Shown one piece after another: positions 6,888 to 27,878 of a stretch of 64,000 nt of DNA; the first letter of the stretch is position 1; every line of letters starts with the position of its first letter. Origin of the DNA: Candidatus Omnitrophota bacterium (GTDB taxonomy: Bacteria; Omnitrophota; Gorgyraeia; Gorgyraeales; Gorgyraeaceae); contig DNHS01000051.1 of the NCBI GenBank assembly GCA_003485765.1, positions 2,314 to 66,313 of the forward strand, written 5' to 3'. The position numbers and the translations under genes were made by a program. The notes beneath the pieces were generated by a model. It made no database searches, had not been told where the DNA came from, and saw only the letters and a program-made list of their open reading frames with translations.

Positions 6888-8720
6888 TCATTTTCTATTA
6901 GCTAATTTAAAACTCTCATCATCTAAAAACAGCGCGTATCCTGTGGCTTTATTCAGCTTTGCCAGAGACTGATACAAACTCCCAAGCGCCTCTACGTAAT
7001 AAGCCTTTTCATCTGTAAGGCTCATATAGGCTTGGATTAATTCTGAAAGCGATGCCTCATTTAATTCTGCGCGGGCTTTGATAATCTTAAATTCCTCTTC
7101 TTTATATTTAATCTTATTAAGATTTGTCATTATTTGGATTAAACCTTTTTTATAATTTAAATATGATTCTTTGACTTCTCTAACAATACTGTCTTTTACC
7201 TGCTCCAGCTCATCCTTTGCTTTTTTATACCCTATCTCCGCGGATTTTTCTTCAGAAAAATGTTGAAGCCCGTCCAATAGCCCGTATTCTACAGATTTAC
7301 TGATAGATTCTGTCCTTGTCGACTGACCATGTTTCTGGCTTGTCTTATCCTTCGTAAAGGTACTAGAAAGAGTATTCCCGCCCAATGGTTTTGACACCTT
7401 AAACCCTAGATACCAGTCATTCCCCAGAGTTAAGGGTTCGCTTTCATATGCGCCACCGGATTTCCCATATGTTCCGGTCAAGTCCACTCTAAGCTGATTC
7501 TTGCTCTCTGTAATCTTGCGCTCATAGTCATTAAATTCCAGCATATATGTTTTTGCCTTAAGATCTGGCCTGGATCTAAAGGCTAAATCCGCGCATTCTT
7601 CTAGAGTTACATCTACCACAATTGGCTCCAGGTCTTTTCCCGGCTCTTTATCTATTATCTCTATTGCTTTTTCTCCTCCCTTGGCATTAACTGCCTGCGC
7701 CAAAGTAAGTTTTGCCATAGCCAGTGTGTTCTCGCTCGATATAACCTGGTAATTTATCTGCTGCATTTGAGATTCTATCTGTAAAAATTCTGCCCTGGTA
7801 ATTAAGCCAAGCTCAAGCCTTTTCTTAGCTCCAGCGAATATACTGCTTGTCTCTTCTAAAAGCGCTTTGTGTAATTTTATATCCATCTTGCTGGCCATAT
7901 ATGCGTAAAATGCTGATTCCACCTCGGCTCTTAAATCCTGCAATGTCTTATCATAATTTGATGTAGACGCTTTAAGATTACTCATCGCCTGTTCAACTGC
8001 ATATTTAAGCCTCCACCCATAATACAATGGATACTCAAACTTAAGCTTGTATTCCTTATCTGTAAAATCCTGAGTTGTGCCGGCAGTCTTTCCTGTAGTC
8101 TCTAAATAATTCAAGGTTGCTGCTGGATAAAGGCCGCGCCTGGCTTCCCGTATCTTGAGTTTAGATAATTCTATTTCTTCCTGGGCTATTTTTGCAGCCA
8201 TATGATTTTCCAATGCTATGTCCACTGCGTCATTGATACCTAAATTTGTTACTTCTCGATTTGCGGAGTTTATCTCAAACGAAGTCAAGGGGCTCGCTCG
8301 AGAACTATCAATATCAAATATGATCGGCACATCTATCCACAAATCTTCACTCCCTAAAACCTCTGGAAATGGCTGGTATCTTTGATACATCCAAACTGTC
8401 TTTAAACATAAATTATCTAATTCTCTATTGTCAGAAGACTCAGAAATATACACATCCTTAAGTTCTCCCCAAGGAGAAAGAAAAAGCTTTAGCTTTACCT
8501 CGCCTTTTGAGCTATATAAAATAGAGGGATCTGGTTTTGGAATAGACCTATAAATATCTTTAGATATATCTATTATATATTGTGCTATCTCTTCTTGTGA
8601 TTGGCTATATGCAGATGATACGGTAGGATTTATTACTGTAACTACAATGAATACAAAGAAATATAATAATATGATACGCTTTATACGCATCCCTTCTCCT
8701 ATTTTTGAGAAGTATATCAT
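6888..8720 (-). CDS. TolC-like outer membrane efflux protein with an extra N-terminal domain of about 150 aa (TonB-C-like).
   Basis: It has a signal peptide, then GEVKLKLFLSPWGELKDVYISESSDNRELDNLCLKTVWMYQRYQPFP, which is similar to a TonB C-terminal domain. Two TolC/OEP repeats with long coiled coils follow. It is the first gene of the efflux operon. Confidence 0.7.
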   Translation of the reverse strand: MIYFSKIGEGMRIKRIILLYFFVFIVVTVINPTVSSAYSQSQEEIAQYIIDISKDIYRSIPKPDPSILYSSKGEVKLKLFLSPWGELKDVYISESSDNRELDNLCLKTVWMYQRYQPFPEVLGSEDLWIDVPIIFDIDSSRASPLTSFEINSANREVTNLGINDAVDIALENHMAAKIAQEEIELSKLKIREARRGLYPAATLNYLETTGKTAGTTQDFTDKEYKLKFEYPLYYGWRLKYAVEQAMSNLKASTSNYDKTLQDLRAEVESAFYAYMASKMDIKLHKALLEETSSIFAGAKKRLELGLITRAEFLQIESQMQQINYQVISSENTLAMAKLTLAQAVNAKGGEKAIEIIDKEPGKDLEPIVVDVTLEECADLAFRSRPDLKAKTYMLEFNDYERKITESKNQLRVDLTGTYGKSGGAYESEPLTLGNDWYLGFKVSKPLGGNTLSSTFTKDKTSQKHGQSTRTESISKSVEYGLLDGLQHFSEEKSAEIGYKKAKDELEQVKDSIVREVKESYLNYKKGLIQIMTNLNKIKYKEEEFKIIKARAELNEASLSELIQAYMSLTDEKAYYVEALGSLYQSLAKLNKATGYALFLDDESFKLANRK

Positions 8721-8784
8721 ATTATTATTATTTTGTCAAGAATGATACGGTTATGATACAGTAGGGAACAGGCATGCCTGTTCC

Positions 8785-10041
8785 CTACGCCTGCACAAAA
8801 ATATCTCTTATTACAACACTTGCTGCGCCTAATGCCACAGAATCTTCTCCAAGCTTTGCTGGTATTATTTTAACAACATTTGCAGGCTCTTCAAATGCCC
8901 ATTTTCTAACAGTCCTTCTTAAGGGCTCTAAAAGCAAACTACCAGCCTTTTCAATTCCTCCTCCAATAACCACTATCTCAGGATTAAATAAATTTACAAG
9001 ATACGCAATCCTTATTCCAAGATTCACAGCTCCATCTTCCAGGAGTTCTATTGCAAGAGTATCTCCTGCCTTTGCAGCTTCTATGATATGATCCACTGTA
9101 AGATTATCCAGTTTATTATCGCAGAATTCAAGTATCTTTGTCTTAACATCGTCTTCTTTTATAAGTTTCTTGACCTGGCTCACTAACCCTAAATCAAGCC
9201 CTGTAGGAAGAAGAAAAGAAATATTCTTTGAAACCTGCAGATATTCTTCGTTGCGCGGATAATTAATCCTTATCTCTCCTGCGCTGCCTGATGCTCCGGC
9301 ATACATGGCGCCTTTTATAATAATGCCGCTTCCTACATCGGAATACATGTAAATCACATCCTGTATATCCATAGGAAGAGCATGCATCTTTTCTCCGAAC
9401 GCAGCAAAAGTTGCGTCGTTACCTATAAAAGAAGGAAACCCAAATCTTTGTTCAATTATCCCTTTTATGGATACATAACTAGCCCTTATCCCATTCTTTG
9501 CAGAGTCCCTCACTGTGCCGAGATGTTCATCTATAATTCCGCTTACCCCTATACCAACACCTTTTATTTTATTTTTGTCCACGCCTTTCTTCTTTAACAA
9601 CTCATCTATTAGTTCAAGCGAAGCTTCTATAATCTTATCCATACTATCTTTTATTCTTACCTTTTTCACCTTGGTTACAATCCTTCCTGCAAGATCAGTC
9701 ACAAGGCCTATCATAGTTGTGCCAAAGACGTCCAAGTGGCCTAAATCAAGCCCTATTACATGCATACTATCATCATTTAATTTAACAACCGTGGGTTTCC
9801 TGCCTCCCGTAGAAACCTCCATACCCCCTTCTGAAACCAGTCCCTTATCAATATAACTATTTATATAATTAGAAACAGTCACTATGTTCAGGTCTGTAAC
9901 CTTTGAGATATCAGCTCTTGTAATAGGGCCATTTCTGCGTATGAGTTCAAGTATCGCAAAATTCTTTCTCTCGTGGTCTGAGAACATATAATTATCGTAC
10001 ATCCTGCCTTTCCTGATAGCCATACATGCCTCCTTGTCCAA
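8785..10041 (-). CDS. ROK family transcriptional regulator (N-terminal wHTH plus sugar-kinase-like fold).
   Basis: The N-terminal HTH is ELIRRNGPITRADISKVTDLNIVTVSNYINSYIDKGLV. The ROK kinase core includes the glycine-rich motifs GLDLGHLDVFGT and GSGIIIKGAMYAG. Confidence 0.8.
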   Translation of the reverse strand: MDKEACMAIRKGRMYDNYMFSDHERKNFAILELIRRNGPITRADISKVTDLNIVTVSNYINSYIDKGLVSEGGMEVSTGGRKPTVVKLNDDSMHVIGLDLGHLDVFGTTMIGLVTDLAGRIVTKVKKVRIKDSMDKIIEASLELIDELLKKKGVDKNKIKGVGIGVSGIIDEHLGTVRDSAKNGIRASYVSIKGIIEQRFGFPSFIGNDATFAAFGEKMHALPMDIQDVIYMYSDVGSGIIIKGAMYAGASGSAGEIRINYPRNEEYLQVSKNISFLLPTGLDLGLVSQVKKLIKEDDVKTKILEFCDNKLDNLTVDHIIEAAKAGDTLAIELLEDGAVNLGIRIAYLVNLFNPEIVVIGGGIEKAGSLLLEPLRRTVRKWAFEEPANVVKIIPAKLGEDSVALGAASVVIRDIFVQA

Positions 10042-10233
10042 CTTACTGTTTTTAGTTAATATTACTATTTTATATTATACTTCTTTTTGCGCTCCAACGT
10101 CAATAGTTTCTTTTTAAAATACTTCTTAAATTTAATTTATTAACTCTTTTGCAAATTTTTAAATTATGAGAGGAATTAAATTGCGTCTAATCTTGCTCTA
10201 AATTGATTAGTTTTTATAATGGCCTGGTTCCAC

Positions 10234-10276
10234 AAAAAAAAACTTCCGAAGCCGCCATACGGCAACTTCGGAAGTT
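10234..10276 (-). terminator. Rho-independent terminator after the small membrane-protein gene.
   Basis: On the minus strand a stem CTTCCGAAG/CTTCGGAAG with a 13-nt loop is followed by a T9 run. Confidence 0.55.
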
Positions 10277-10300
10277 GGTTAAATTCAGATATATAAAAAT

Positions 10301-10549
10301 CTATACGCCTTTTTCAACTTTTGAACGTATTTCTAAAAGCAGAGTTACTACTTCTGCTGTAACAAGAAATATGAAGAAATACACTATTCCTAATAAAAGC
10401 CCTATAAAACCTGTTGCTTTAGGAGCCTCTGGTGTGCCGCCTCCTATGAATATGACAATAGCAGCTACTATCCCTATTGCCAGAGAAGCCCAGGATAAAA
10501 CCTTGAATACTACAGAACTAATTTCTAAAACTTTGTATTTTTTATCCAT
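10301..10549 (-). CDS. Small hypothetical membrane protein (82 aa, two predicted TM helices).
   Basis: It has two hydrophobic helices (LSWASLAIGIVAAIVIFIGG and FIGLLLGIVYFFIFLVTAEVV) and is followed by an intrinsic terminator. The antisense plus-strand ORF 10203-10568 has a junk-like composition. Confidence 0.5.
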   Translation of the reverse strand: MDKKYKVLEISSVVFKVLSWASLAIGIVAAIVIFIGGGTPEAPKATGFIGLLLGIVYFFIFLVTAEVVTLLLEIRSKVEKGV

Positions 10550-10679
10550 TACATCCCCCTTTCTTTAACTTGTTTATTTTAAAATAGTTACGCTATACGA
10601 TACGGTTATTTGACCTTTGCCCTCGCAACGCCATGAAAAAAACAAGAGCTGCTCGGGACAGTTTTTGCTTTGCAAAAAC

Positions 10680-10757
10680 TGGTAGCCCCAACCGGATTTG
10701 AACCGGTGTCTGATGGCTGAGAACCACCTGTCCTAGACCAGGCTAGACGATAGGGCC
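10680..10757 (-). tRNA. tRNA-Glu (anticodon CUC) with encoded CCA.
   Basis: I folded the cloverleaf by hand. The acceptor is GGCCCUA/UGGGGCU, the D-stem GUCU/GGAC, the anticodon stem GGUGG/CCAUC with loop UUCUCAG, and the T-arm ACCGG-UUCAAAU-CCGGU. The discriminator is A, followed by CCA. Confidence 0.7.
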
Positions 10758-10942
10758 TATAGTTCTCCAATCCGCATCAGTACCCGGCCTTTTGCCTATT
10801 CCTAAATTATATTAAAGAACAAATTACAAGATAACCAAATTTACTATAGCGTAGACATCATTTTAATGATTTTTCTGAGTTTGTCAAGCTGAAATTTGAT
10901 TTTGATCTTTGTTTTTGTTATTTAAGAAATCAATAAAAACAT

Positions 10943-10972
10943 TGACATAGTATATCTTATTAGGTATTATTC
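10943..10972 (+). promoter_or_regulatory. Sigma70-like promoter for the FIST/HK/RR operon.
   Basis: TTGACA, a 17-nt spacer and TATTAT lie about 20 nt upstream of the FIST gene start region. Confidence 0.35.
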
Positions 10973-10988
10973 TTGATGAGAACAAAAA

Positions 10989-12176
10989 ATGGCTACTGTT
11001 ATAGGAACTGGTATAAGCACTAAATTAGATTCCTTCGCTTCAGGTAAAGAAGCTGCCTTAAGCGCCTATTATCAAATCGAAAAAAAAGACCCTAGTATAG
11101 TAATTACATTTATATCTACAATATTCAATCAAGAGGCCGTAATAAAAGGTATACGTTCTATAATAAGAGATGCGCCATTAATAGGATGCTCCAGTATAGG
11201 GTCTATTTCTACCTATGGTTCTCACAGAGACTCGGTAGCTGTATTTATAATCAGCTCTGATTCTATTGAATTTTCTTATGGGATAGGCCGCGAGATTAAT
11301 AAGTCTTCGCGTTTAGCAGGGCACAAAGCTAGTAAACAGGCTTCTGACTCAACGCACAGTCCAAAACAGCTTTATATGATGTTTTCTGACAGCCTGTCAG
11401 GAAACAGCGCTGATATTCTAAGAGGCGCGCAGGAAGTGCTGGGAACAAGTTTTCCTATAATAGGCGGCGGCGCGTGCAATAAATCATGCATTGAAAAAAC
11501 ATATCAATATATAAATGGCGATATACATACAAATTCTGTAGTGGGAATTCTATTATCAGGAGACATAAAGTTAGGCATGGGGCAATCCAGCGGATGGCAG
11601 CCTATAGGAAAACCGCATAAAGTCACAAAAGCAAAATCTAATACCATAAAAGAAATAGATAAAAAAATCGCCGTGGAAATATATGAGGATTATTTTGAAA
11701 AATCTGCTGAGAAACTTAGAAATGAAGATATTTGTAAACTAGGTCTTTATTATCCTATTGGCATGCGTTGGATCAATAAAGATAAAGAGTATCTTACGAG
11801 GATCCCTTTAACAATAGAGGAGAACGGAAGCCTTATTTTAAACGGAGATATACAAGAAGATGAGTATATAAGCTTGATGATAGGCGATAAAGATCTTGTT
11901 TTGGAATCTGCAAAAAAGGCTGCGTTAATGGCTATAAGTAATAGCAAAAACGCAAAAATAGAATTCGCCATTATGTTCAGCGGCATAAGCCGGCTATTAT
12001 TACTAAGAAAAGACGCCTACAAAGAAATAGATACTGTGAAAAAAATTATAGGTAAAAATATACCTATCTTGGGATGCTACACGCTAGGAGAATACGCGCC
12101 TTTTAACGCAGAAGAATCTAAAGGCCAGTGTCATTTTAATAACCAGAGTATCTCTATAGCATTATTTTCAGAGTAA
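10989..12176 (+). CDS. FIST-domain sensory protein (FIST_N + FIST_C).
   Basis: It is about 395 aa and soluble. The N-terminal region (GISTKLDSFASGKEAAL ... DPSIVITFIS ... APLIGCSSIGSI) matches FIST patterns. It sits immediately upstream of the histidine kinase in the same operon. Confidence 0.55.
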   Translation: MATVIGTGISTKLDSFASGKEAALSAYYQIEKKDPSIVITFISTIFNQEAVIKGIRSIIRDAPLIGCSSIGSISTYGSHRDSVAVFIISSDSIEFSYGIGREINKSSRLAGHKASKQASDSTHSPKQLYMMFSDSLSGNSADILRGAQEVLGTSFPIIGGGACNKSCIEKTYQYINGDIHTNSVVGILLSGDIKLGMGQSSGWQPIGKPHKVTKAKSNTIKEIDKKIAVEIYEDYFEKSAEKLRNEDICKLGLYYPIGMRWINKDKEYLTRIPLTIEENGSLILNGDIQEDEYISLMIGDKDLVLESAKKAALMAISNSKNAKIEFAIMFSGISRLLLLRKDAYKEIDTVKKIIGKNIPILGCYTLGEYAPFNAEESKGQCHFNNQSISIALFSE

Positions 12177-16882: not shown

Positions 16883-19360
16883 TTATATATTAAAATCTAA
16901 TACCCTGTGATCTCTTTTGATGTCTTGTATTGTCGCCGGACTGAGGTCGTCTTCTATAAGGTCCTTACTTTTAGCTATCTCCGCAGCTTCAAGGTGCATT
17001 TCGAGATCTAGGCTGGCATTGCGATTGTGAATTAAAAATCCCGGCATACGATCCAGACCCATGAGTTTTCTGAATTTATTATAAGTTTTGCCAACTACGG
17101 AGCGACTCATAGAAAGCTTACGGCCGATTTCTCTATTTGATAATCCTTGGATCTTATAGCTAAGAATCCTGCTTCCATTTACAATAGTTTTCAGCAACCT
17201 GACATCAGCTTTTTCGACAAGGCCTATTTCATCAGCTATCCCAAAAACATAAAGACATTGCTCGAGTTTAGCAGCGTAACCCTCATCTCTCACAGGATAC
17301 AACCCCAGCTTTTTTATGGCGTTAATGTAATATCTCGCATTAAGAGCCTCGGTGACGCCTTTCTCTAATAACAGTTGAGGCACACGAGCCAATGCTTCTT
17401 TTTCTCTCGGATTGAGCTGAGGCAAGCCTAGAAATCGTCTTAACAAAGCAAAATCAACATTGACCACTCCATTTTCTCTAGCCTGATTTAATTCATCTGA
17501 GCTCGTATAAGTATAGATCAAGGCCCTTTTAAATGCTCTGTAAATATCTTCTTGCCTGTATTTAAAATCTGTCTGTCCACGTAAAGCTCTTGCCCATATG
17601 ACAAAAAAGTACAAGAACATACTGCCCTCTAATTTTCTAACTTCTCCATGCCCTGATTTATAAATAAGAATTTTATCCACGACATTTTCATAGCTATGGT
17701 CTGTTGCGTTATTTCTCCACGCTTCAATTAATCTATCCACGTCCATTCCTACATCAACACTCTTTGCTCCAAATTTAACCGCTTCTGTCAATATCTTTGC
17801 TAACATTGAATTTTCATCCGGGACCTTTCTCTGCCAGAATGTGTCCAATTTGTCGAGCGCAATTAGCATATCAAGTTTTAACATTGCCTCACAAGCGTCA
17901 ATAAGGAGTTTCTGTTCCCTGGCATCGGCCGGATGGTAGAATCCAGGACTTTCGCTTAATTTACCAAATTCTATTTTCTCTGACCATGGCTTGTCGTTCT
18001 GATTAACAACCTTGTCTTTTTCATCTATAATTGTGGCACTGACAGGCTCTCTGTAGAGAAAACGGACCTTAACAGGCAAACCTGCGGCTTCATTGCGTGG
18101 CTCAAAGTATGTTAAATACTTACCAAATATAAACAGGTTTGCTTGCTGACTAAGTCTTGGCCCGAAAAGATAACTATCCGCGGCCCCATCCAATACATCA
18201 AGATTGACTTCAGTCCATAGATAACGGGCATCTTCTTTATCGCCTTCGGCTTGACCTATCCACCTGCCTGTAATATTATCGAAAATAGCATACCTAAATC
18301 CTCCTTCTATTGTCTTTTCATCCAAATCCCTTTCTCGTATAGGATATAATCTAGCCACCTGCCTTCTTACATACCACTGATGCCTCTCTGAAACAGGCCT
18401 TATATCAAGCGTAAGAGGATTCCCCAGATAGTCCATAATGGGGTTGCCTCTATAATCCAGGGTAGGCTTTCCATCTTCATCCACAAATCGCATCCTCGAC
18501 ATATAATAGTCTGCGTGCTTATTTTTCCGCGCAGTTGTCCAATCGAATTCTGCTTCAAATCTTGCCCCTTGCAGCCTTTTGTCTTCAAGCGTAACCCACC
18601 TTTTAGGCATTTTTTGCTTGGGACTAGATATTGTGTTTAGCCCTAAGGACACAGTTCCGTCTTTCTTGCTCACACAGGCCTTCTCTCCTCTTATTAAGAT
18701 CCTGCGCCCTTCAAATCTCATCATCCTGCTCCTGCTTAACCTATTGCAAGAACCTGCAAGCTTTAATTCACCATTGTCTTCGATAACGTATATAAGAAGC
18801 GGCTCTATTATCTTGATTATGCTCTCGTCTTTTACAATCCTAACCTGTGTCACCTGGCCCTGGATAACATCAAACTCTATTTCCAAGCCTTCGTGCTCTC
18901 CTAAATTTAATCTGTGCTCTCCGCCTATATGAAGTTTACTCGATGATGAGAAATGACCTATAGTAACCCTATCTAACTTTAAAAAATCCTCTCCAGATAT
19001 TCCTTTTGCCGGGTCAAAGTAAACAACATCCCCTGTATCCCAGTGATAAATAAAAGCTTCATTACCTCTCCGGCCGATATGTGCGCCAGTGGCAGGGTCT
19101 AGCAACCTGTCATGGGCTATCTGTAAATTATTGGCCGCCTTTTTATCATCCGGAATACCGGCAAGAAATTTCTTCCGCTCACTATCCCTTAAACTTTCTA
19201 ATAATCTCTCCCGGCCATCTTTGTTATTAGAAATAAGCTGAGGCCTCAGATTGGTTTTTTTGGGTAGCTCTATACCATAGCATGTACTTGTAACAGTGAA
19301 TGTTACAAGTACAATTGTTGATATTATCCTGATGATGAAAAGTTTTTTAAAGTTTAACAT
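16883..19360 (-). CDS. Large hypothetical protein (825 aa) with an N-terminal signal/anchor and a C-terminal LuxR/sigma70-region-4-type HTH.
   Basis: The N-terminus MLNFKKLFIIRIISTIVLVTFTVTSTCYG is hydrophobic. The C-terminus LSNREIGRKLSMSRSVVGKTYNKFRKLMGL matches the LuxR-type HTH. I recognised no other domains. Confidence 0.5.
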   Translation of the reverse strand: MLNFKKLFIIRIISTIVLVTFTVTSTCYGIELPKKTNLRPQLISNNKDGRERLLESLRDSERKKFLAGIPDDKKAANNLQIAHDRLLDPATGAHIGRRGNEAFIYHWDTGDVVYFDPAKGISGEDFLKLDRVTIGHFSSSSKLHIGGEHRLNLGEHEGLEIEFDVIQGQVTQVRIVKDESIIKIIEPLLIYVIEDNGELKLAGSCNRLSRSRMMRFEGRRILIRGEKACVSKKDGTVSLGLNTISSPKQKMPKRWVTLEDKRLQGARFEAEFDWTTARKNKHADYYMSRMRFVDEDGKPTLDYRGNPIMDYLGNPLTLDIRPVSERHQWYVRRQVARLYPIRERDLDEKTIEGGFRYAIFDNITGRWIGQAEGDKEDARYLWTEVNLDVLDGAADSYLFGPRLSQQANLFIFGKYLTYFEPRNEAAGLPVKVRFLYREPVSATIIDEKDKVVNQNDKPWSEKIEFGKLSESPGFYHPADAREQKLLIDACEAMLKLDMLIALDKLDTFWQRKVPDENSMLAKILTEAVKFGAKSVDVGMDVDRLIEAWRNNATDHSYENVVDKILIYKSGHGEVRKLEGSMFLYFFVIWARALRGQTDFKYRQEDIYRAFKRALIYTYTSSDELNQARENGVVNVDFALLRRFLGLPQLNPREKEALARVPQLLLEKGVTEALNARYYINAIKKLGLYPVRDEGYAAKLEQCLYVFGIADEIGLVEKADVRLLKTIVNGSRILSYKIQGLSNREIGRKLSMSRSVVGKTYNKFRKLMGLDRMPGFLIHNRNASLDLEMHLEAAEIAKSKDLIEDDLSPATIQDIKRDHRVLDFNI

Positions 19361-19430
19361 AATATAGACAAAAAAATAACCTTTCCAAATAAATTCCCAG
19401 TTTCGGTTATGTATTTAAATTTTGATAAGC

Positions 19431-20309
19431 CTAGCTCGCCTTATTTTTATGCTCTTCTTTCTTCAATGGCAATATTCCCGCCATTTCGCCAATCACGTTC
19501 ACCAATTCCGTATTCGCTGGAATCACAATCTTCGCGTTATTGGCTAAAGATTTCTCCACTGCCTCAAGTTTACGCAATACCTGGGCATTGCCGATAAAAT
19601 ACTTTTCCGCTGCTTCGTTTAACAGGCGGATTGCCTCTGCCTCGCCCTCTGCTTCCAGAATTCTAGCCTGCCTGAAACCTTCTGCTTTTTTAATCTCCGC
19701 TCTTTTCTGGCCGTCGGCTGCGGTTTCCGTGGCAGTAGCAAAATCCACTGCTGCGATTTTTTCATTTTCCGCCTTAACCACCTTGTTCATTGTTTCCTGC
19801 ACATCCTTTGGCGGATCAATCTCTTTTAATTCTGTGCGCACAATTTCAATACCCCAGCTCGAAGTCTCCTCCATTAAAGTTTTATGCAGCTCCGCATTAA
19901 TCTTGCCCCGCTCGCTATTTGCAGATTTTAAAGTCAGAGTGCCTATAATATTCCTCAAGGTAGTCCTGGCCAGGTTTACAATCTGGTATTGATAATTAAA
20001 AACATTGTACTGGCAGCCTTTGACGCTTTCCTGATCTGCCTTCACTTTAAAATATATCTGGGCATCCACCTTGGCATTAAGATTATCGTTGGTGATAATC
20101 TCCTGAGGGTCAGCATCCACCATTTTTTCGGTAATGTTTATCTGGTACATCTTATCTATTCCTGGGATAATCCAGTTAAAGCCGGCATTAGCAAAAGTAC
20201 GGTATTTTCCTAATCTCTCAATTAACCCGCGATGAGTAGGCCTGACAATCCTTATCCCTGCAAAAAATATCACAATCACAGCCATACCAAGTAAATAAAA
20301 AATATTCAC
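19431..20309 (-). CDS. SPFH/band-7 (stomatin/prohibitin/HflKC-like) membrane protein. A GTG start is likely.
   Basis: An N-terminal TM helix is followed by the SPFH core (IERLGKYRTFANAGFNWIIPGIDKMYQINI...QIYFKV) and a C-terminal coiled coil. An AAGGAGG RBS sits upstream of the GTG. Confidence 0.85.
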   Translation of the reverse strand: MNIFYLLGMAVIVIFFAGIRIVRPTHRGLIERLGKYRTFANAGFNWIIPGIDKMYQINITEKMVDADPQEIITNDNLNAKVDAQIYFKVKADQESVKGCQYNVFNYQYQIVNLARTTLRNIIGTLTLKSANSERGKINAELHKTLMEETSSWGIEIVRTELKEIDPPKDVQETMNKVVKAENEKIAAVDFATATETAADGQKRAEIKKAEGFRQARILEAEGEAEAIRLLNEAAEKYFIGNAQVLRKLEAVEKSLANNAKIVIPANTELVNVIGEMAGILPLKKEEHKNKAS

Positions 20310-20424
20310 CTTGCTCCTCCTTTTTTTAAAGCATTATTAAAACAACCTTTAAGCAGACTAACTATATTATTATACTACCCCCTATTAACAAATCAAGCAG
20401 CAAGAAGCAGCGCTGGGAATCCGG

Positions 20425-21522
20425 TTATATTTTTTGCACTGATAGGCTGCTCGTTCTATTTTCGCCATGTTTTTGGCTCCACTTCTCATACACTTCTTTT
20501 TGTATACGCGCTTGACGACATAATTCTGACGACGTCGTCAAGAAAGAACCTGTTTCAAAATAAGTGTAGGAAGGGCAATAACTACAATAAGAAAGCGATG
20601 GACACCCCCTGCAGTGCTTTCTATCTCGCATACGTGATGCCCTTAAGCTCTTGAATAACTTATTATCACACCATATACGAATGAATGAGGCGCGCTTCAG
20701 GCTATTCCCATTGTTAAATCTCAATCGCACACACGGATTTAATTGGCCGTAAGGGGTTATGTTGCTTACCCTTCTTCCTGCGCCGCACAATGGTAGATTT
20801 GGGTCAATGTTCAAAAGTTTGTTCGAAGATCTCATAGGCTGGTGACGATATAGCCCATCTTCTATATAATGTTTCATCTGCAAATCACTCAGTGCATGAT
20901 GTAATGGTCCTGTACTCGCATCATCGCAAGGGAAAATACGATATAATCCCTTGGAATCAAGAAACTGCGCTTTAAGCGTATGCTTTACAAATTGCCGCAA
21001 CTTCCACAGTTCATGCACATTATATTGTAATACAGTGGTCTTAACCAGTACATTTACTCCCATCTCAATCAATTTTGCAATGGCATTTATAGTTTTAGCG
21101 AATGAACCTTGCATCCGGGTAACCTTCTCATGGGTATTCTTAAAGCCATAAAGGCTAATTTCAACAGCGCTTGGAACTATCTTTCTAATTTTTATAGCAG
21201 CTCTCTTATCTATTAAGGTACCGTTTGTAAATATTCGAATGTCAAAATCTAAGCTACGGGCGTGTTCAAGAATTTCAAAAATATCCTTTCGAAGAAATGG
21301 TTCTCCTCCGGTGAATATCAAATGTAAGCATCCCGCATTCTTGAGTTGCTTCAAATATGTTACAATTTCTCCTGTGGTTAGCTCAGCTGTTTTTTTTCGC
21401 ACAATATAACAATGAATACAATGCATATTACATTGATAGGTAAGCTCAAAATGGCAAGAAATTGGGAATTGTCTGTTATGGACAGCTGCTATGAAATCTT
21501 TAGCAGTTTTTATGGGGGCCAT
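20425..21522 (-). CDS. Radical SAM enzyme with a C-terminal SPASM domain (peptide-modifying maturase type).
   Basis: CNMHCIHCY is the CxxxCxxC radical-SAM cluster motif. The C-terminal cysteine-rich SPASM region is CGAGRRV...CVRL...CRGCPSLSYCSYCPSY. Confidence 0.85.
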   Translation of the reverse strand: MAPIKTAKDFIAAVHNRQFPISCHFELTYQCNMHCIHCYIVRKKTAELTTGEIVTYLKQLKNAGCLHLIFTGGEPFLRKDIFEILEHARSLDFDIRIFTNGTLIDKRAAIKIRKIVPSAVEISLYGFKNTHEKVTRMQGSFAKTINAIAKLIEMGVNVLVKTTVLQYNVHELWKLRQFVKHTLKAQFLDSKGLYRIFPCDDASTGPLHHALSDLQMKHYIEDGLYRHQPMRSSNKLLNIDPNLPLCGAGRRVSNITPYGQLNPCVRLRFNNGNSLKRASFIRIWCDNKLFKSLRASRMRDRKHCRGCPSLSYCSYCPSYTYFETGSFLTTSSELCRQARIQKEVYEKWSQKHGENRTSSLSVQKI

Positions 21523-21658
21523 TAAAAGTATGTACTTATGATAGAATAGAAACGGCTAACAACATGACCCAGGGGACATCAAGGCTCCACTGGTCCCGGA
21601 ACACCCGCTATACACACGCCATTCATGTTCTTTAATTTCTATGTGTTTTATAAGCGGC

Positions 21659-21994
21659 TTAATCCACTGTTTTTTCTTTTTTTCCATTTTCATGGATTAC
21701 CTCTTCCAACTCAATGAGATCTTTCTTTGTCAACCAGCCTAAAAAACTCGTTATGTCCGATTCGGCTTCTTTAAAATTTACCTCATAGTCATCAATAATT
21801 CTTTTAATTATTTCTGCGACCGTGCTCTTGCCATCTATTGCCTCCCAAATCGCTGTGCCAGTTTGATTGCACACTTCAAGGCTTTCGCGATCTATCGTTT
21901 GTCTTTCTGCAGGTATTAAAACTGCTTCCCCTTCAATAACCCGCCATGCGACATTTTTCTTTTTCTTAGGAATTGTCCTGAGCCACTCCATCAA
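21659..21994 (-). CDS. PqqD-family peptide chaperone (RiPP recognition element).
   Basis: WRVIEGEAVLIPAERQTIDRESLEVCNQTGTAIWEAIDGKSTVAEIIKRIIDDYEV...DITSFLGWLTKKDLIE matches the canonical PqqD/RRE pattern. Confidence 0.75.
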   Translation of the reverse strand: MMEWLRTIPKKKKNVAWRVIEGEAVLIPAERQTIDRESLEVCNQTGTAIWEAIDGKSTVAEIIKRIIDDYEVNFKEAESDITSFLGWLTKKDLIELEEVIHENGKKEKTVD

Positions 21995-22820
21995 CTATTC
22001 TCCAAAATGAATCGTCAGGTTTAAAATCCAGCCAATAACACTTTATATTATTGCTTAGATCCTGACATGTGTCAAGCAGAACACTAATTATCTCTTGGTT
22101 AACCGGTATACAATGATTATGTCTTAATAATGCTACCATCGCTTCAACCTTGGTCATAGGTTCAATCTTGTTTGATGTATTTTTGCGAAGGAAAAAAAAT
22201 TCTTTAATACAGTGTGAACCATTCGAATAGTGGCGTACATTTCCACTCCAGGGAGTGCCATATATTTTGTATAATCTTTTCTCTTTACGTATCACAATGG
22301 TCTCATCATTTAGAATTTTTAGCCCACGTTTAAGCGCCAATTTGGCTATTGTAGATTTTCCTCCTCCGCTGGCAGCAAGAAATAAATATGCCTTTTTCAT
22401 ACCCACAACTCCACAACTATGCAACATCAATGACTGTGTTTTCGGTAATAGTAAACTGTACCAAAATTCTGGGAAAAAGTTTTCTACAATCCTTCCGGAG
22501 GGCTCTTTGGTATATAATAGTATTTTTTTCATAGAGGTATCTAAATACCCTGCATAAAAATATTTCCCCTTATCAGGAAAAATCAAACAAAATCTTTCAT
22601 CTATTTTACCAAACTTCCAGTTACGAGCTTGAAAAATTATAGAATCCAGAGTAGGGCGCTTTAAGCCAGGCTCATATTTCACTTCTATATGTATATCCGG
22701 ACTTCCGCTAGCTGTGTAATGCCTATAGTATTGTTCGAGACGCCTCCTAATCGTAGGGTGGGATATTTGAAAGGCAAAAGAGACTCCGCCTATACTATAC
22801 ACTAGTTTATGATGATGCAT
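21966..22820 (-). CDS. HPr kinase-related (HprK-like) P-loop protein, of the type associated with PqqD/radical-SAM cassettes.
   Basis: The glycine-rich P-loop LAASGGGKSTIAKLALKRG and an HprK C-terminal-like fold are present. It overlaps the PqqD-like gene. Confidence 0.65.
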   Translation of the reverse strand: MHHHKLVYSIGGVSFAFQISHPTIRRRLEQYYRHYTASGSPDIHIEVKYEPGLKRPTLDSIIFQARNWKFGKIDERFCLIFPDKGKYFYAGYLDTSMKKILLYTKEPSGRIVENFFPEFWYSLLLPKTQSLMLHSCGVVGMKKAYLFLAASGGGKSTIAKLALKRGLKILNDETIVIRKEKRLYKIYGTPWSGNVRHYSNGSHCIKEFFFLRKNTSNKIEPMTKVEAMVALLRHNHCIPVNQEIISVLLDTCQDLSNNIKCYWLDFKPDDSFWRIVDGVAQDNS

Positions 22821-22865: not shown

Positions 22866-23951
22866 TCAAGGCGTATTTAAACAAACCTCTGCCTCTGTAA
22901 CAAGTTCACAGATCAAGTCTTTGACTGAGATTATCTTTTTAATCCGGTAGGCATTACTGCCACACATGGCAAATCCCTTGTCCAACTCTCCTCGGTAAGC
23001 ATTCAACAGCGCTTTGGCAATACAATAATTAACTTTTTTGGCGTCACAAGTATACAAACATTTATATTCGCAACCAAAATCCATACGTTCCCCTTTAGAA
23101 ATCCTCTGCACAAATTCATTACGAATAACTCTTCCCGGCATCCCCACAGGACTCTGGATAACTACAATATCCTCTTTCCTGGCTGAGATATATGCCTCTT
23201 TATATTTCAGAGATACATCACACTCGTGCGTACATACAAAACGTGTAGCTATCTGTACCCCGCTTGCGCCTAAACGCATAACCCTGGCAATATCTTTACC
23301 ATCAAAGATTCCTCCAGCGGCAATAACAGGAATACGCGATTTATCGTTCTCAAAAGCACGCGTAACCGCCAATACCTCGGTCAGGATGCTATCCAGAGAA
23401 AAATGCTCTTCATCAGCAAGCTCGGCCATACTATAGCCCAAATGTCCGCCTGCAAGCGGCCCTTCGACAACAATAGCATCAGGCAGGCGCTTATACCTCC
23501 TGGCCCAAGTACTGCAAATAATCTGCGCTGCGCGGCCGGAAGAAACAATCGGAACAAGTTTAGTCTGATCATTTTTAATCAAAGATGGCAAACGTAACGG
23601 TAGGCCTGCCCCGGAAATAATCACATCCACAGATTCAGCTTGAGCCGCCTCCACTAACTCATCGTAGTTAGTAAGGACACACATAATATTTACGCCGAAC
23701 GGATTTTTCGTCATGCTCCTGGTATCTCGAATGATATTTGTTAGTTCCTCGCGCGAACGCATCTTATAATCACGTTTCTCATTACCGCATTCCTCCCCCA
23801 GCCCCACCGCGGCAATAATCCCAAGCGCCCCTTCGTTGGATACTGCCGAAGCTAATGAAGACGAAGACACACGCGCGCCCATTCCACCTTGAATGATCGG
23901 CAGCTCTATTCTTAAATTACCTATATCTAGATTCTTAAACTCTATATTCAT
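22866..23951 (-). CDS. Nitronate monooxygenase / FabK-like FMN-dependent oxidoreductase (NPD family).
   Basis: LPIIQGGMGARVSS...GALGIIAA is the typical NMO/FabK N-terminus. The FMN-binding TIM-barrel motifs are present. Confidence 0.85.
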   Translation of the reverse strand: MNIEFKNLDIGNLRIELPIIQGGMGARVSSSSLASAVSNEGALGIIAAVGLGEECGNEKRDYKMRSREELTNIIRDTRSMTKNPFGVNIMCVLTNYDELVEAAQAESVDVIISGAGLPLRLPSLIKNDQTKLVPIVSSGRAAQIICSTWARRYKRLPDAIVVEGPLAGGHLGYSMAELADEEHFSLDSILTEVLAVTRAFENDKSRIPVIAAGGIFDGKDIARVMRLGASGVQIATRFVCTHECDVSLKYKEAYISARKEDIVVIQSPVGMPGRVIRNEFVQRISKGERMDFGCEYKCLYTCDAKKVNYCIAKALLNAYRGELDKGFAMCGSNAYRIKKIISVKDLICELVTEAEVCLNTP

Positions 23952-25004: not shown

Positions 25005-25358
25005 TCAATCGCGGGATTTGCTTGATTGCTTAAGGAGCGATTTATTGTGGGATATGAAGGCTAATTTTTTCTTTTTAGTCCATTTTTTAATCTGCGCTTC
25101 GCGCGACTGGGCATTGGATCTATTTAGGTGGATTTCTTTATAGATAAGTCTGACTGGGTGGCGGATTCGGGTGTAGCTGCCACCTTTACTGGAGTTATGT
25201 TCTTTTATTCGACGACAAATGTCGGTAGTGCTGCCTGTGTATAAACTGCCATCTTTACAGCGGAGTATGTAGACATGCCACATAATTTCTTTTGAGTAGA
25301 ACCATGGCGGTTCGACGCGGCCGCCTTTGGCGGCTTTGCTCACCGTCACCTTGAGCAA
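25005..25358 (-). CDS. GIY-YIG nuclease family protein (UPF0213/YhbQ-like). The true start is probably the internal Met at about 25283.
   Basis: WHVYILRCKDGSLYTGSTTDICRRIKEHN carries the GIY...YTG motif. The first 25 codons of the ORF-track model overlap hairpins and look like 5' UTR. Confidence 0.75.
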   Translation of the reverse strand: MLKVTVSKAAKGGRVEPPWFYSKEIMWHVYILRCKDGSLYTGSTTDICRRIKEHNSSKGGSYTRIRHPVRLIYKEIHLNRSNAQSREAQIKKWTKKKKLAFISHNKSLLKQSSKSRD

Positions 25359-25544
25359 GCGAAAGGTGGCTGCCAGAGATAGATTCGTATAACTATATCT
25401 TTACGGCATTGTAACTTGGATTCTAACTTTTTCTATTATCGCTTCTTATTGCAATATCTATGGTTATATTAATAGCATAAAACTATAATGGTCTCTTTGG
25501 CTGTTTTTCATTGTTCAACTGCGAACTTTTATTTAATAGACTGC

Positions 25545-25814
25545 TTAATGCGTCTGGGCAATCCTATGTATAACCTCGGAGACAAAAGTCTGGTATTTAA
25601 TCCCGAGCTTCTGGGCCCTTTGTTTAATAGTAGCCAGGTCGTGGCTATTTACGCGAACATTCAAAACAGCATCTTTTCTTCTTGCAGCGATACTTTCAGC
25701 GATAGACGCAAAGTTACTCTTGCTGACATTGATATATTCACCTTTTAAAAGGCTATCCTCAATGGTTTTTTCTTGTCTAGTCAGATTAATCTTTTTCTTC
25801 AACATAAGGAACAA
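25545..25814 (-). CDS. BrnA-like antitoxin (CopG/RHH-like, DUF4415 type).
   Basis: The C-terminus VLNVRVNSHDLATIKQRAQKLGIKYQTFVSEVIHRIA matches the BrnA pattern. The gene overlaps the upstream BrnT-like gene. Confidence 0.55.
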   Translation of the reverse strand: MFLMLKKKINLTRQEKTIEDSLLKGEYINVSKSNFASIAESIAARRKDAVLNVRVNSHDLATIKQRAQKLGIKYQTFVSEVIHRIAQTH

Positions 25815-26001
25815 TCCAAATATAGCCCTTAAGCTTAAAGAGCATAATGTTTTGATCCACTCTTTTGGGATGGCTTTTAACAGCGATTAATTGTGAAGAA
25901 ATAATCTCTTCAAAAGAAACACCTCTTGTTCTTTTAAGCCTTTCGCTCTTTAACTGGCTCCAGCGTATATCTTTCATTCGGCCTCTAGTTTGTATATACA
26001 A
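25786..26001 (-). CDS. BrnT-like toxin (DUF497), apparently C-terminally truncated or frameshifted.
   Basis: MKDIRWSQLKSERLKRTRGVSFEEI resembles the BrnT N-terminus. The expected C-terminal residues, similar to INLTRQEKTIE, appear in the overlapping frame of the antitoxin ORF. Confidence 0.5.
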   Translation of the reverse strand: MYIQTRGRMKDIRWSQLKSERLKRTRGVSFEEIISSQLIAVKSHPKRVDQNIMLFKLKGYIWIVPYVEEKD

Positions 26002-26254: not shown

Positions 26255-26611
26255 CTAAATCTTTCTTCTTTCCTTTATTTCATTCTCAATATACATCTTA
26301 AAACGTTTCTGATCGATCTGGCTGATGCCTTTAAAAATAACTCCTACTTCAAAAGTTTTGGAATTCTCTTCGCCTATTTTTTTTATCCAAGCTATTTCGC
26401 CTTTAGCGAAAATGGGCATTGAATCAAAAGGCACTTCAAGCTGCACATCTAATTTAGTGCCTTTCATAAGTCGTTCGTAAACTATAAACCGCGCCCCGCC
26501 TTCGCTTATATCTCTGCCTACAATCTGATCCTGAGCGCAAGGCTCCTCTATGGTTTTATATTTTATTATAACAGGCCATTCAATCCTTACAAATTTTCTA
26601 TTCTCTTCCAT
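26255..26611 (-). CDS. PilZ-domain protein (c-di-GMP receptor).
   Basis: The RxxxR motif (RKFVR) and the DxSxGG motif (DISEGGARF) are both present. Confidence 0.7.
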   Translation of the reverse strand: MEENRKFVRIEWPVIIKYKTIEEPCAQDQIVGRDISEGGARFIVYERLMKGTKLDVQLEVPFDSMPIFAKGEIAWIKKIGEENSKTFEVGVIFKGISQIDQKRFKMYIENEIKERRKI

Positions 26612-27878
26612 AACCCGCCCCTACAACTCTTTCCAATCTTTTTATAACCTTATCTTTGCCTAAAAGAGCTAAGACTTCGAATACGCCTGCTGAAACAGCT
26701 TTACCTGTCACTGCAACCCTTAATGGATGTATTAGATCAGCGCTTTCTATCTTCAGCTCTTCTATCAGTGCCCTGGATTCTTTTTCTATATTTTCCTGCG
26801 TAAAAGGGCCTACTTTTTCAAGCCGCTCTCTTGTTATGCTTAGTATACTTGAAACTTTGTCTTTTTTCAAAAATTTTTCTACTGCCTCTTCATTGTACTG
26901 CACATCGTCTGAGGTAAATATGCCAAATTCTTCTTTAAATTCAACTAGGGTTTTAACCCTGGGATGATAAAGCTCTGCGAATTTTCTGAACCACGCCTCG
27001 TCGCATTCAGGCCTGATAAAATCCATCCCTATCTTTACAAATTCATCCAGAGTAAGCTTTCTTATATGTTCCCCGTTAATCCATCTTAATTTATCCTGGT
27101 TGAATTCAGCGCCTGTTTTATTTATACGTTTCAGGCTGAATTTTTTTATAATCTCCTCCGCAGTCATGAATTCCTTGTTGTCTCCGGGCGACCACCCCAG
27201 TAGCGAAAGATAATTAACCAGCGCCTGAGGCAGATAGCCCATCTGGCGGTAATCAGTTATTGAAACTGCGCCAAAACGTTTAGATAAAGGCGCTTTGTCA
27301 GGCCCGAGTATCAAAGGTACATGCGCAAATTTCGGAGGCTTTACCCCAAGCGCATCATAAACCGCTGCTTGTTTATTGGTATTTGAAATATGGTCATCGC
27401 CTCTTATTACATGCGTTATCTGCATCTCTATATCATCCACAACACACGCAAAATTATAGGCAGGGCTTCCATCTGATTTCATCAGCACCAGGTCGTCTAT
27501 CAGGGTATTGTCCACCTCTATCTCGCCGTGCACAAGATCGTATATTTTTATCTTTTCATCCAGTATCTTAAAAATAATTGCTTCTCCGTCTTTATAGGCC
27601 AGCTCTTTTTCAAGCAGCCTCTGAGCATAAGATCTGTAAATATCAAATCTATTTGTCTGAAAATAAGGCCCTTCGTCCCAATTTAAACCAAGCCATTTTA
27701 AATCTGCGATAATCTCTTCCAGGTAAACATCGCTTGAACGCTTCTGATCAGTATCTTCTATTCTCAATATAAATACTCCTGCCTGAGACCTTGCGTATAG
27801 CCAATTAAATAATGCTGTTCTTACGCTTCCTATATGTAGATAACCTGTAGGGCTTGGCGCGAACCTAACGCGAACCAT
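26598..27878 (-). CDS. gltX: Glutamate-tRNA ligase.
   Basis: MVRVRFAPSPTGYLHIGSVRTALFNWLYAR carries the HIGH motif. The KMSKS-type motif is LSKRFG. Confidence 0.9.
   Translation of the reverse strand: MVRVRFAPSPTGYLHIGSVRTALFNWLYARSQAGVFILRIEDTDQKRSSDVYLEEIIADLKWLGLNWDEGPYFQTNRFDIYRSYAQRLLEKELAYKDGEAIIFKILDEKIKIYDLVHGEIEVDNTLIDDLVLMKSDGSPAYNFACVVDDIEMQITHVIRGDDHISNTNKQAAVYDALGVKPPKFAHVPLILGPDKAPLSKRFGAVSITDYRQMGYLPQALVNYLSLLGWSPGDNKEFMTAEEIIKKFSLKRINKTGAEFNQDKLRWINGEHIRKLTLDEFVKIGMDFIRPECDEAWFRKFAELYHPRVKTLVEFKEEFGIFTSDDVQYNEEAVEKFLKKDKVSSILSITRERLEKVGPFTQENIEKESRALIEELKIESADLIHPLRVAVTGKAVSAGVFEVLALLGKDKVIKRLERVVGAGYGRE

Follow-up and report, generated by a model that had tools for sequence, protein, structure and literature searches.

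A predicted peptide-maturation operon of Omnitrophota in which a precursor gene accompanies an HprK-like P-loop protein, a PqqD-type recognition element and a radical SAM/SPASM enzyme

On which peptide might an HPr-kinase-like P-loop protein, a PqqD-family protein and a radical SAM (S-adenosylmethionine) enzyme act when their genes lie together and no substrate is annotated among them? The question is raised by a 64-kb stretch of DNA from a Candidatus Omnitrophota bacterium (64,000 nucleotides of contig DNHS01000051.1, hereafter the window), in which an earlier note had read three co-oriented genes as an uncharacterised maturation cassette for a peptide made on the ribosome and modified after translation (a RiPP). 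That core reading is supported: the minus-strand open reading frames (ORFs) match the positions given in the note exactly, and the three products belong to the kinds of protein that it named, an HPr-kinase-like fold, a PqqD-family protein and a radical SAM enzyme with a CxxxCxxC cluster and a SPASM domain. The note had also reported that no precursor is annotated. This is true of the GenBank record, but a precursor ORF is present in the DNA at 21556-21693. The locus is a compact four-gene RiPP operon on the minus strand, running from about 22820 to about 20400 and encoding a kinase-like protein, a RiPP recognition element (RRE), a precursor and a radical SAM/SPASM enzyme. We hold with high confidence that this operon and its precursor exist.

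The precursor gene (21556..21693, minus strand) has 45 codons and encodes a peptide of 45 aa, MKMEKKKKQWIKPLIKHIEIKEHEWRVYSGCSGTSGALMSPGSCC; it is identified from the ORF list, from its ribosome-binding site and from similar ORFs in related loci. A Shine-Dalgarno-like GGAAGAGG, read from the sequence at 21700..21707 on the minus strand, precedes the ATG by 6 nt, and the first part of the ORF is shared, in a different frame, with the final 35 nt of the PqqD gene. The peptide carries the leader recognition motif W10-I-K-P13-L-I15 (21649..21666, minus strand), which has the form [W/Y]xxPx[L/V/I], and the predicted core, C31-SGTSGALMSPGSC-C45, would be encoded by 21559..21603 of the same strand if the putative leader/core boundary is placed correctly. 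No other ORF of the 64-kb window combines the leader motif with a ribosome-binding site. In GenBank the kinase-like and radical SAM genes bear the tags DCY56_06525 and DCY56_06515, 'hypothetical protein' records of a Candidatus Omnitrophica/Omnitrophota metagenome-assembled genome (MAG), and since there is room for 06520 only between them, no precursor is annotated there. Gene calls from JGI, Logan and ENA include the exact precursor sequence, with no NCBI source listed, and no model of Pfam or NCBIfam matches ten representative precursor peptides.

Comparison of gene neighbourhoods, which the earlier note had suggested as a way of finding a conserved small ORF, indeed uncovers similar small ORFs in about two dozen related loci. 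Every one of the 6 distinct close relatives for which enough DNA is available carries, beside the RRE gene, a small ORF with a ribosome-binding site of the GGAGG type, and further precursor-like ORFs occur in more distant loci from species-representative genomes and metagenomes; the kinases of loci with such ORFs are only 21-47% identical to that of the window. In locus L001 the precursor ORF precedes the RRE gene instead of following it. The precursor filters found none in L003, where the contig ends just past the radical SAM start, nor in L011, L013, L014, L017 and L018. Common to the aligned precursors (26 peptides, 25 of them distinct) is a Lys-rich N-terminus, and a [W/Y/F]xxPx[I/L/V/M] leader motif is present in 24 of the 26, followed in the more distant precursors by ...V-K-L-x-x-E-E/Q-A-V-L. 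The first Cys lies 17-21 residues past the aromatic residue of the motif in nearly all of them, and the cores hold 2-4 Cys and are otherwise variable. Of the 25 distinct precursors, 20 end in Ser and 3 in Thr (binomial p = 2.6e-12 against the 25% of Ser plus Thr in the cores). The two exceptions are the type found in the window (...SPGS-CC) and that of L009 (...SPYT-CC), and judging from their endings both may be read as a Ser/Thr terminus to which Cys-Cys has been appended. In L025, paralogous precursors (L025:811-987 and L025:2066-2239) flank the kinase-like gene, their leaders being alike and their cores different.

How the precursor varies over a short evolutionary distance can be followed in a second assembly, L004, in which the cassette is 97.9% identical at the nucleotide level over window positions 22922-20402. 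Eleven of the 52 nucleotide differences fall inside the 138-nt peptide ORF, all of them in codons 29-41 and none in codons 1-28, and the resulting amino-acid differences (T34P, G36N and M39A) all lie within the predicted core. An invariant leader joined to a hypervariable core is what usually marks a RiPP precursor.

The kinase-like gene (21966..22820, minus strand) encodes a protein of 284 aa that contains LAASGGGKSTIAKLA and is provisionally assigned to the ScmC family of P-loop kinases with the HPr-kinase/PEPCK (phosphoenolpyruvate carboxykinase) fold. Its key residues are H134, the Walker A motif 150-ASGGGKST-157 and 171-NDE-173. It is remote from every curated family. The HprK-related kinases A and B, which the earlier note had invoked, do give matches (HprK_rel_A, TIGR04352, 1.7e-7 and 30.7 bits, in the P-loop region only; HprK_rel_B, TIGR04355, 3.5e-6 and 26.4 bits), but these are weak and well under the cut-off of 200 that applies to each. 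The ScmC model (TIGR04249) gives 6.3e-5 and 22.4 bits against a cut-off of 125, and ten Omnitrophota relatives of the protein likewise all score under this cut-off. Because there is no match at E <= 0.01 to TIGR00679, the model of bona fide HprK, the protein is not HPr kinase proper; a bona fide HprK with HPr encoded nearby would have undone the reading of the earlier note. A local Pfam scan returned no match, Hpr_kinase_C included, from a copy of Pfam that possibly lacks the PF27840 model; precomputed PF27840 'ScmC' matches are on record for the 98%-identical protein P0001 and for almost all homologues. A single-sequence search recovered 7 homologues and a profile search 727, the named ones mostly from Omnitrophota and every source name shown being 'hypothetical protein', while a profile built from eight close members, run against representatives clustered at 50% identity, gathered 364 of them with E <= 1e-30 and 7,711 with E <= 1e-10.

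Residues H134, G154-K155-S156-T157, L170, D172, P190-W191 and F266 are invariant across 77 homologues of the kinase-like protein. When the profile of these 77 sequences is compared with the Protein Data Bank (PDB), H134, the P-loop and the DD motif align to the His, GxSGxGKS and ADD of HprK/P with an E value of ~0.07, and a PDB sequence search with 8 sequences gives generic P-loop matches only. A structure model first built from 8 sequences had a predicted local distance difference test score (pLDDT) of 66; the model used here, built from the 77-sequence alignment, has a mean pLDDT of 91.8 and a predicted template modelling score (pTM) of 0.88. The protein combines fold similarity to the HPr-kinase/PEPCK group with its conserved His, Walker A motif and Asp. 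We therefore place the protein in the HprK/PEPCK P-loop kinase fold, as a diverged representative whose catalytic residues are under selection. A search of the literature found no experimental work on the ScmC-type kinase family.

The second gene (21659..21994, minus strand) shares a 29-nt overlap with the kinase-like ORF and encodes a discrete PqqD-type RRE of 110-111 aa; its likely start is the ATG at 21991, and its counterpart in the near-identical L004 is called as 110 aa. The protein contains WRVIEGEAVLIP and TAIWEAIDGKSTVAEII and matches PF05402 well above the gathering score (51.5 bits against 23.4). Its best NCBIfam match is lasso_PqqD_Bac, the model of Bacillota lasso peptide RREs (4.3e-10, under the cut-off).

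The last gene (20425..21522, minus strand) encodes a predicted radical SAM/SPASM peptide maturase of 365 aa, with matches to PF04055 (89.5 bits against 29.5) and to the SPASM domain PF13186 (25.9 bits against 21.5). The protein contains C31-NMH-C35-IH-C38 and CRGCPSLSYCSYCPSY and has a Cys-rich C-terminus. Across 24 homologues, C31, C35, C38, C246, C264, C304, C307, C313 and C316 never change and C335 hardly does, which amounts to a complete SPASM cysteine set. Since no N-terminal RRE domain is present and the cluster motif begins at residue 31, the enzyme would depend on the separate PqqD protein. Its closest solved relatives are SkfB (6efn, 5.6e-18) and PqqE (6c8v, 7.9e-12), and its best full-length NCBIfam alignments are to MftC (1.5e-34; 119.7 bits against 265) and to the sactipeptide maturase StsB, both under cut-off; it falls below the cut-offs of the StsB, AlbA and SkfB models alike. 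The homologues are named merely 'radical SAM protein'.

The arrangement of kinase-like, PqqD and radical SAM/SPASM genes recurs in relatives more than chance would give. Among 47 related loci that were fetched, many of them on short contigs, a radical SAM/SPASM gene is found in 32, a PqqD gene in 28, a small S24/S26-type peptidase gene in 18, an ABC exporter gene in 9 and a PF14907 nucleotidyltransferase gene in 7, and some relatives have two or three radical SAM genes. The peptidases of L024 and L020 match TIGR02228, the archaeal-type signal peptidase I model, with 60.1 and 57.2 bits against a cut-off of 51.85, and give weaker SipW matches. No signal peptidase I, PF14907 transferase or ABC exporter was found in the 64-kb window (phmmer, E <= 1), so that a leader peptidase and an exporter must be unlinked or absent here. 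Homologous radical SAM clusters without a kinase were sought as well, as a control for a link between the kinase and the C-terminal Ser/Thr, and both loci examined (Endomicrobiales, Elusimicrobia) do carry one.

Two of the related loci differ in scale from the cassette of the window. A much larger cluster in L001 (L001:2609-12536) encodes a signal-peptidase-like protein, an ABC exporter, a methyltransferase, the kinase, the precursor, the RRE and the radical SAM/SPASM enzyme, and continues with a second PqqD protein, a B12-binding radical SAM enzyme, a PRMT-like methyltransferase and another radical SAM enzyme. In L048 (Endomicrobiales; L048:4207-4722 and 6950-11038), the kinase is cut down to a 171-residue P-loop domain, and the cassette adjoins a gene called as more than 10,000 residues, for which no Pfam match is on record.

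The closest parallels to this gene content are found among phosphorylated RiPPs. Linear polyphosphorylated peptides (LPPs) have been described from Bacillota (Popov et al., Nat Commun 2026; PMC13381572). In these systems a discrete RRE binds a [Y/W]xxPx[L/V/I/F/A] leader motif that is common to LPP and lasso peptides, the kinase LppK puts several phosphates on core Ser3, and a SpI-like peptidase cuts off the leader; LPPs and paeninodins are described as restricted to Bacillota, and no radical SAM enzyme is mentioned for LPP clusters (PMC13381572). The cassette of the window shares with LPP clusters the discrete RRE, a kinase of the HprK fold class (alike at the fold level only) and the [Y/W]xxPx[L/V/I] leader motif, and its relatives add an archaeal-type (SipW-like) signal peptidase I, the PF14907 nucleotidyltransferase and an ABC exporter. 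They differ as follows: a radical SAM/SPASM enzyme, which LPP clusters lack, is integral to the cassette, with one to three of them as constant partners in the Omnitrophota/Elusimicrobiota family; of the LPP leader consensus YxxPxVLxHQxIxFETxxS, only the first six positions find a match (WxxPxI); the LPP phosphorylation site is core Ser3; LPPs are reported from Bacillota only, whereas the family of the window occurs in Omnitrophota and Elusimicrobiota; the window has no peptidase, nucleotidyltransferase or exporter; and its kinase probably belongs to the ScmC family (PF27840), with no Hpr_kinase_C match in the local Pfam scan.

Lasso peptide clusters of the paeninodin type offer a second parallel. 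There, the precursor is phosphorylated at its C-terminal Ser by HprK homologues while still linear (Zhu et al. 2016, reviewed in PMC8498205) and a nucleotidyltransferase decorates the phosphate (PMC8498205). The shared features are WxxP leaders read by a discrete B1-type RRE and an optional nucleotidyltransferase, and among NCBIfam models, the one for Bacillota lasso RREs fits the PqqD protein of the window best. The action of the kinase on a linear precursor at a C-terminal Ser has its analogue in the site proposed near the C-terminus here. In contrast, the radical SAM/SPASM enzyme stands in place of the class-defining enzyme of lasso clusters: neither a lasso cyclase (Asn-synthetase-like) nor a B2 cysteine protease is found among the ORFs scanned, namely the genes on either flank and, of the remaining ORFs in the window, the ten largest, whose Pfam assignments are unrelated.

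In architecture, the cassette matches the SynChlorMet cassette of ScmC, ScmD, ScmE and ScmF (TIGR04248-TIGR04251), defined by comparative genomics only (NCBIfam), which likewise joins an ScmC-type P-loop protein, a PqqD homologue and PqqE-like radical SAM/SPASM enzymes. The scores set them apart, with 24.7 bits against 100 for ScmD (TIGR04248) and 22.4 against 125 for ScmC, and the single radical SAM enzyme of the window scores 103.9 with ScmE (TIGR04250) and 75.7 with ScmF (TIGR04251), each against 400, where two paralogues are expected. To our knowledge, the curated description of SynChlorMet names no precursor. A literature search found nothing on SynChlorMet or on the combination of HPr kinase, PqqD, radical SAM enzyme and precursor. 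The HprK-related kinases A and B, distant HprK relatives with a P-loop that are linked to PqqD-family proteins in their curated descriptions, are similar in kind, but the window's protein scores far under their cut-offs. By these scores, the genes of the window are relatives of the SynChlorMet and HprK-related kinase families, not members.

The radical SAM enzyme, for its part, shares with SkfB, AlbA and StsB (which form thioethers), PqqE and MftC the CxxxCxxC cluster, the full SPASM cysteine set and, by prediction, action on peptides, and with PqqE and MftC also the presumed dependence on a separate PqqD-type partner; it reaches no family cut-off, and its substrate family is another. Conserved Cys in the cores and SkfB as the closest solved enzyme recall sactipeptides and ranthipeptides, yet the RRE is discrete and not fused. 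From the precursors of pyrroloquinoline quinone (PQQ) and mycofactocin, which have a conserved end (Glu...Tyr, or Val-Tyr), the family differs in its hypervariable cores ending in Ser, Thr or Cys-Cys. The cassette of the window is the minimal form of an Omnitrophota/Elusimicrobiota family that combines an LPP-like module with a radical SAM/SPASM enzyme.

How might the four components work together? By analogy with published structures of RREs bound to leaders, the RRE would bind W10-xx-P13-x-I15 of the 45-residue precursor and present its C-terminal core to the two enzymes. The ScmC-family kinase, if it behaves like the HprK-like kinases of paeninodin-type and LPP systems, would use ATP to phosphorylate a hydroxyl near the peptide C-terminus. 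Ser43 is the most likely site because it is the counterpart of the terminal Ser/Thr in 23 of the 25 precursors, the end of the window's peptide looking like ...PGS plus Cys-Cys. The radical SAM/SPASM enzyme would install one or more cross-links through core Cys by way of a 5'-deoxyadenosyl radical; a thioether is the most likely product, since no core residue other than Cys is conserved and some of the nearest characterised enzymes form thioethers. Taken as a whole, we consider this account somewhat better than an even bet. The further proposal that it describes a previously uncharacterised RiPP class, in which one precursor receives both an HprK-type phosphorylation near its C-terminus and a Cys cross-link installed by a radical SAM enzyme, and in which the phosphate of some members may be extended to polyphosphate or decorated by the PF14907 transferase, is advanced tentatively, the odds being slightly against it.

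A different scenario is that the P-loop enzyme, acting in the same operon on the same precursor, leaves no stable phosphate but activates a Ser/Thr hydroxyl or the C-terminus for elimination or substitution, with the radical SAM reaction as a separate modification. Phospho-Ser could, for example, give dehydroalanine and then, by addition of Cys, a lanthionine-like ring. Phosphorylation followed by elimination is the established chemistry of class III and IV lanthipeptide synthetases, which speaks for this scenario, as do cores rich in Ser, Thr and Cys with a Ser/Thr at or near the C-terminus and, in the window's peptide, a ...S-C-C end that sets Cys beside the candidate Ser. However, Pfam and NCBIfam reveal neither a lyase nor a cyclase domain in the cassette, and characterised HprK-like RiPP kinases leave stable phosphates or polyphosphates. 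Moreover, some relatives carry the PF14907 nucleotidyltransferase, and since enzymes of this type decorate the phosphate in lasso clusters, the phosphate by implication persists. We therefore regard activation without a lasting phosphate as unlikely, though as the strongest competitor to stable phosphorylation. Perhaps, instead, the kinase-like protein is catalytically dead and serves as a scaffold or second recognition subunit for the radical SAM enzyme, whose cross-link would then be the sole modification. The family is too diverged from HprK for a match at the sequence level, the window's protein has Glu where HprK has the second Asp of its 'DD' pair, and the L048 protein is reduced to its 171-residue domain. 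Yet GKST of Walker A, His134 and Asp172 are invariant in 77 diverged sequences, which argues for selection on nucleotide binding and phosphotransfer, and even the shortened L048 protein still has its P-loop; a purely structural role is accordingly improbable.

It is also conceivable that the cassette makes a peptide-derived redox cofactor like PQQ or mycofactocin, with the flavoenzyme of the FabK/NMO type encoded upstream as its partner. A discrete PqqD protein with a radical SAM/SPASM enzyme is the architecture of PqqD/PqqE and MftB/MftC, the radical SAM enzyme aligns best over its full length, among NCBIfam models, to MftC (1.5e-34), and the window contains no exporter or peptidase. But the proteins do not group with those pathways, a possibility that the earlier note had named as fatal to its reading: MftC gives 119.7 bits against 265, PqqE 84.6 against 381 and PqqD 31.5 against 46. 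A core that is hypervariable between 98%-identical cassettes and across the family fits ill with a fixed cofactor, relatives carry exporters and leader peptidases, and no NMO-type gene was noticed adjoining the cassette in the related gene maps that were read. A cofactor pathway is thus very improbable. Least credible of all is the notion that the 45-codon ORF arose by chance, the true substrate coming from some other gene. In its favour, the ORF is short, lies partly within the PqqD gene and is apparently unannotated in GenBank; against this stand its ribosome-binding site, the conservation of position and motif over about two dozen loci, the invariant leader with its variable core, the C-terminal Ser/Thr bias (p = 2.6e-12) and the fact that it is the sole such ORF in the window.

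Several observations nevertheless weigh against a phosphorylated and cross-linked product. The kinase-like protein scores below every curated NCBIfam cut-off and has no significant sequence match to HprK (the E value of ~0.07 given above); it could phosphorylate another acceptor or spend ATP otherwise, and its ScmC-like gene lacks an obvious ribosome-binding site. The scores of the radical SAM enzyme with MftC, a C-C bond former and decarboxylase, and with PqqE are about equal to those with thioether formers. With neither a leader peptidase nor an exporter in the window, the cassette might be incomplete. The site of phosphorylation is the least certain step, as the window's peptide is one of only two types without a Ser/Thr end; nor does the LPP analogy fix the site, because the phospho-Ser of LPPs is at core position 3 and not at the C-terminus. 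Finally, the activities of kinase, radical SAM enzyme and RRE are predictions for the whole family.

This analysis pins down four things: the precursor gene, its leader motif, the probable boundary between leader and core, and a candidate phospho-acceptor. With them, what was an orphan gene association becomes a 2.4-kb construct open to expression and mass spectrometry. If both modifications do occur on one precursor, the class would be a hybrid of the LPP/paeninodin tailoring module with chemistry of the sactipeptide or ranthipeptide type, and the subclade of the window would be marked by an unusual appended Cys-Cys terminus. The module known from phosphorylated linear peptides, reported as restricted to Bacillota, appears here in uncultured, often ultra-small Omnitrophota together with radical SAM chemistry, which bears on the modular assembly of RiPP pathways and, for candidate phyla, on chemical ecology. 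Besides, the family of ScmC-type kinases is large.

The limits of the operon can be drawn from its flanks. A weak terminator-like hairpin (20398..20415, minus strand, consensus scan) marks the 3' end of the unit, and a promoter-like site at 20396-20369 (also from a consensus scan) lies between the radical SAM gene and the SPFH gene. Similarity to L004 ends at 20402, 23 nt past the radical SAM stop codon, although L004 runs on for 4.4 kb; the upstream side is uninformative in this comparison because L004 reaches its contig edge there. The SPFH/HflK gene (19431-20309) was rejected as a member of the operon, given that similarity to L004 stops 23 nt after the radical SAM stop codon and that the hairpin and promoter-like site intervene. 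Neither this gene nor the adjacent 825-residue ORF is a conserved neighbour of the cassette. The latter (16883-19360, minus strand) has no Pfam match at E <= 0.01 and shows, by eye, an N-terminus that is hydrophobic and, close to the C-terminus, a stretch resembling a helix-turn-helix. The DNA downstream of the cassette in L004 (GCA_041643015.1, 2522-6957) is unrelated to window positions 16883-20401, and encodes a 254-residue ORF without a Pfam match, followed by a protein that exceeds 2,800 residues and has matches to AAA_28, Radical_SAM, NAGPA, APH, TCAD9 and DUF4922; rearrangement, transfer of the cassette or an assembly chimera could be the cause.

On the other side lies the FMN oxidoreductase of the FabK/NMO type (22866-23951), which the earlier note had considered a possible member. 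We rejected it as a component: in the related loci, the 98%-identical strain excepted, no comparable gene was noticed next to the cassette, a result that comes from reading the called genes and for which no search with the NMO protein was made. It is for this reason taken as a neighbour. In L003, from another Omnitrophota MAG, the cassette again lies a few kb from a glutamyl-tRNA synthetase gene (L003:1-449 against window 26598-27878), which hints at loose synteny.

Elsewhere in the window, a few genes on the minus strand deserve mention. A GIY-YIG domain protein (25005-25358) is followed, within 25005-26001, by a CopG-antitoxin-like gene (25545-25814) that overlaps a 71-residue ORF without a Pfam match (25786-26001), and the pair may be a small toxin-antitoxin system. 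A stand-alone PilZ-domain protein (26255-26611) is encoded with a 14-nt overlap with the 3' end of the glutamyl-tRNA synthetase gene. At 62486-63910, a gene whose product joins a GmrSD_C restriction-endonuclease domain to DUF5655 may be a defence gene.

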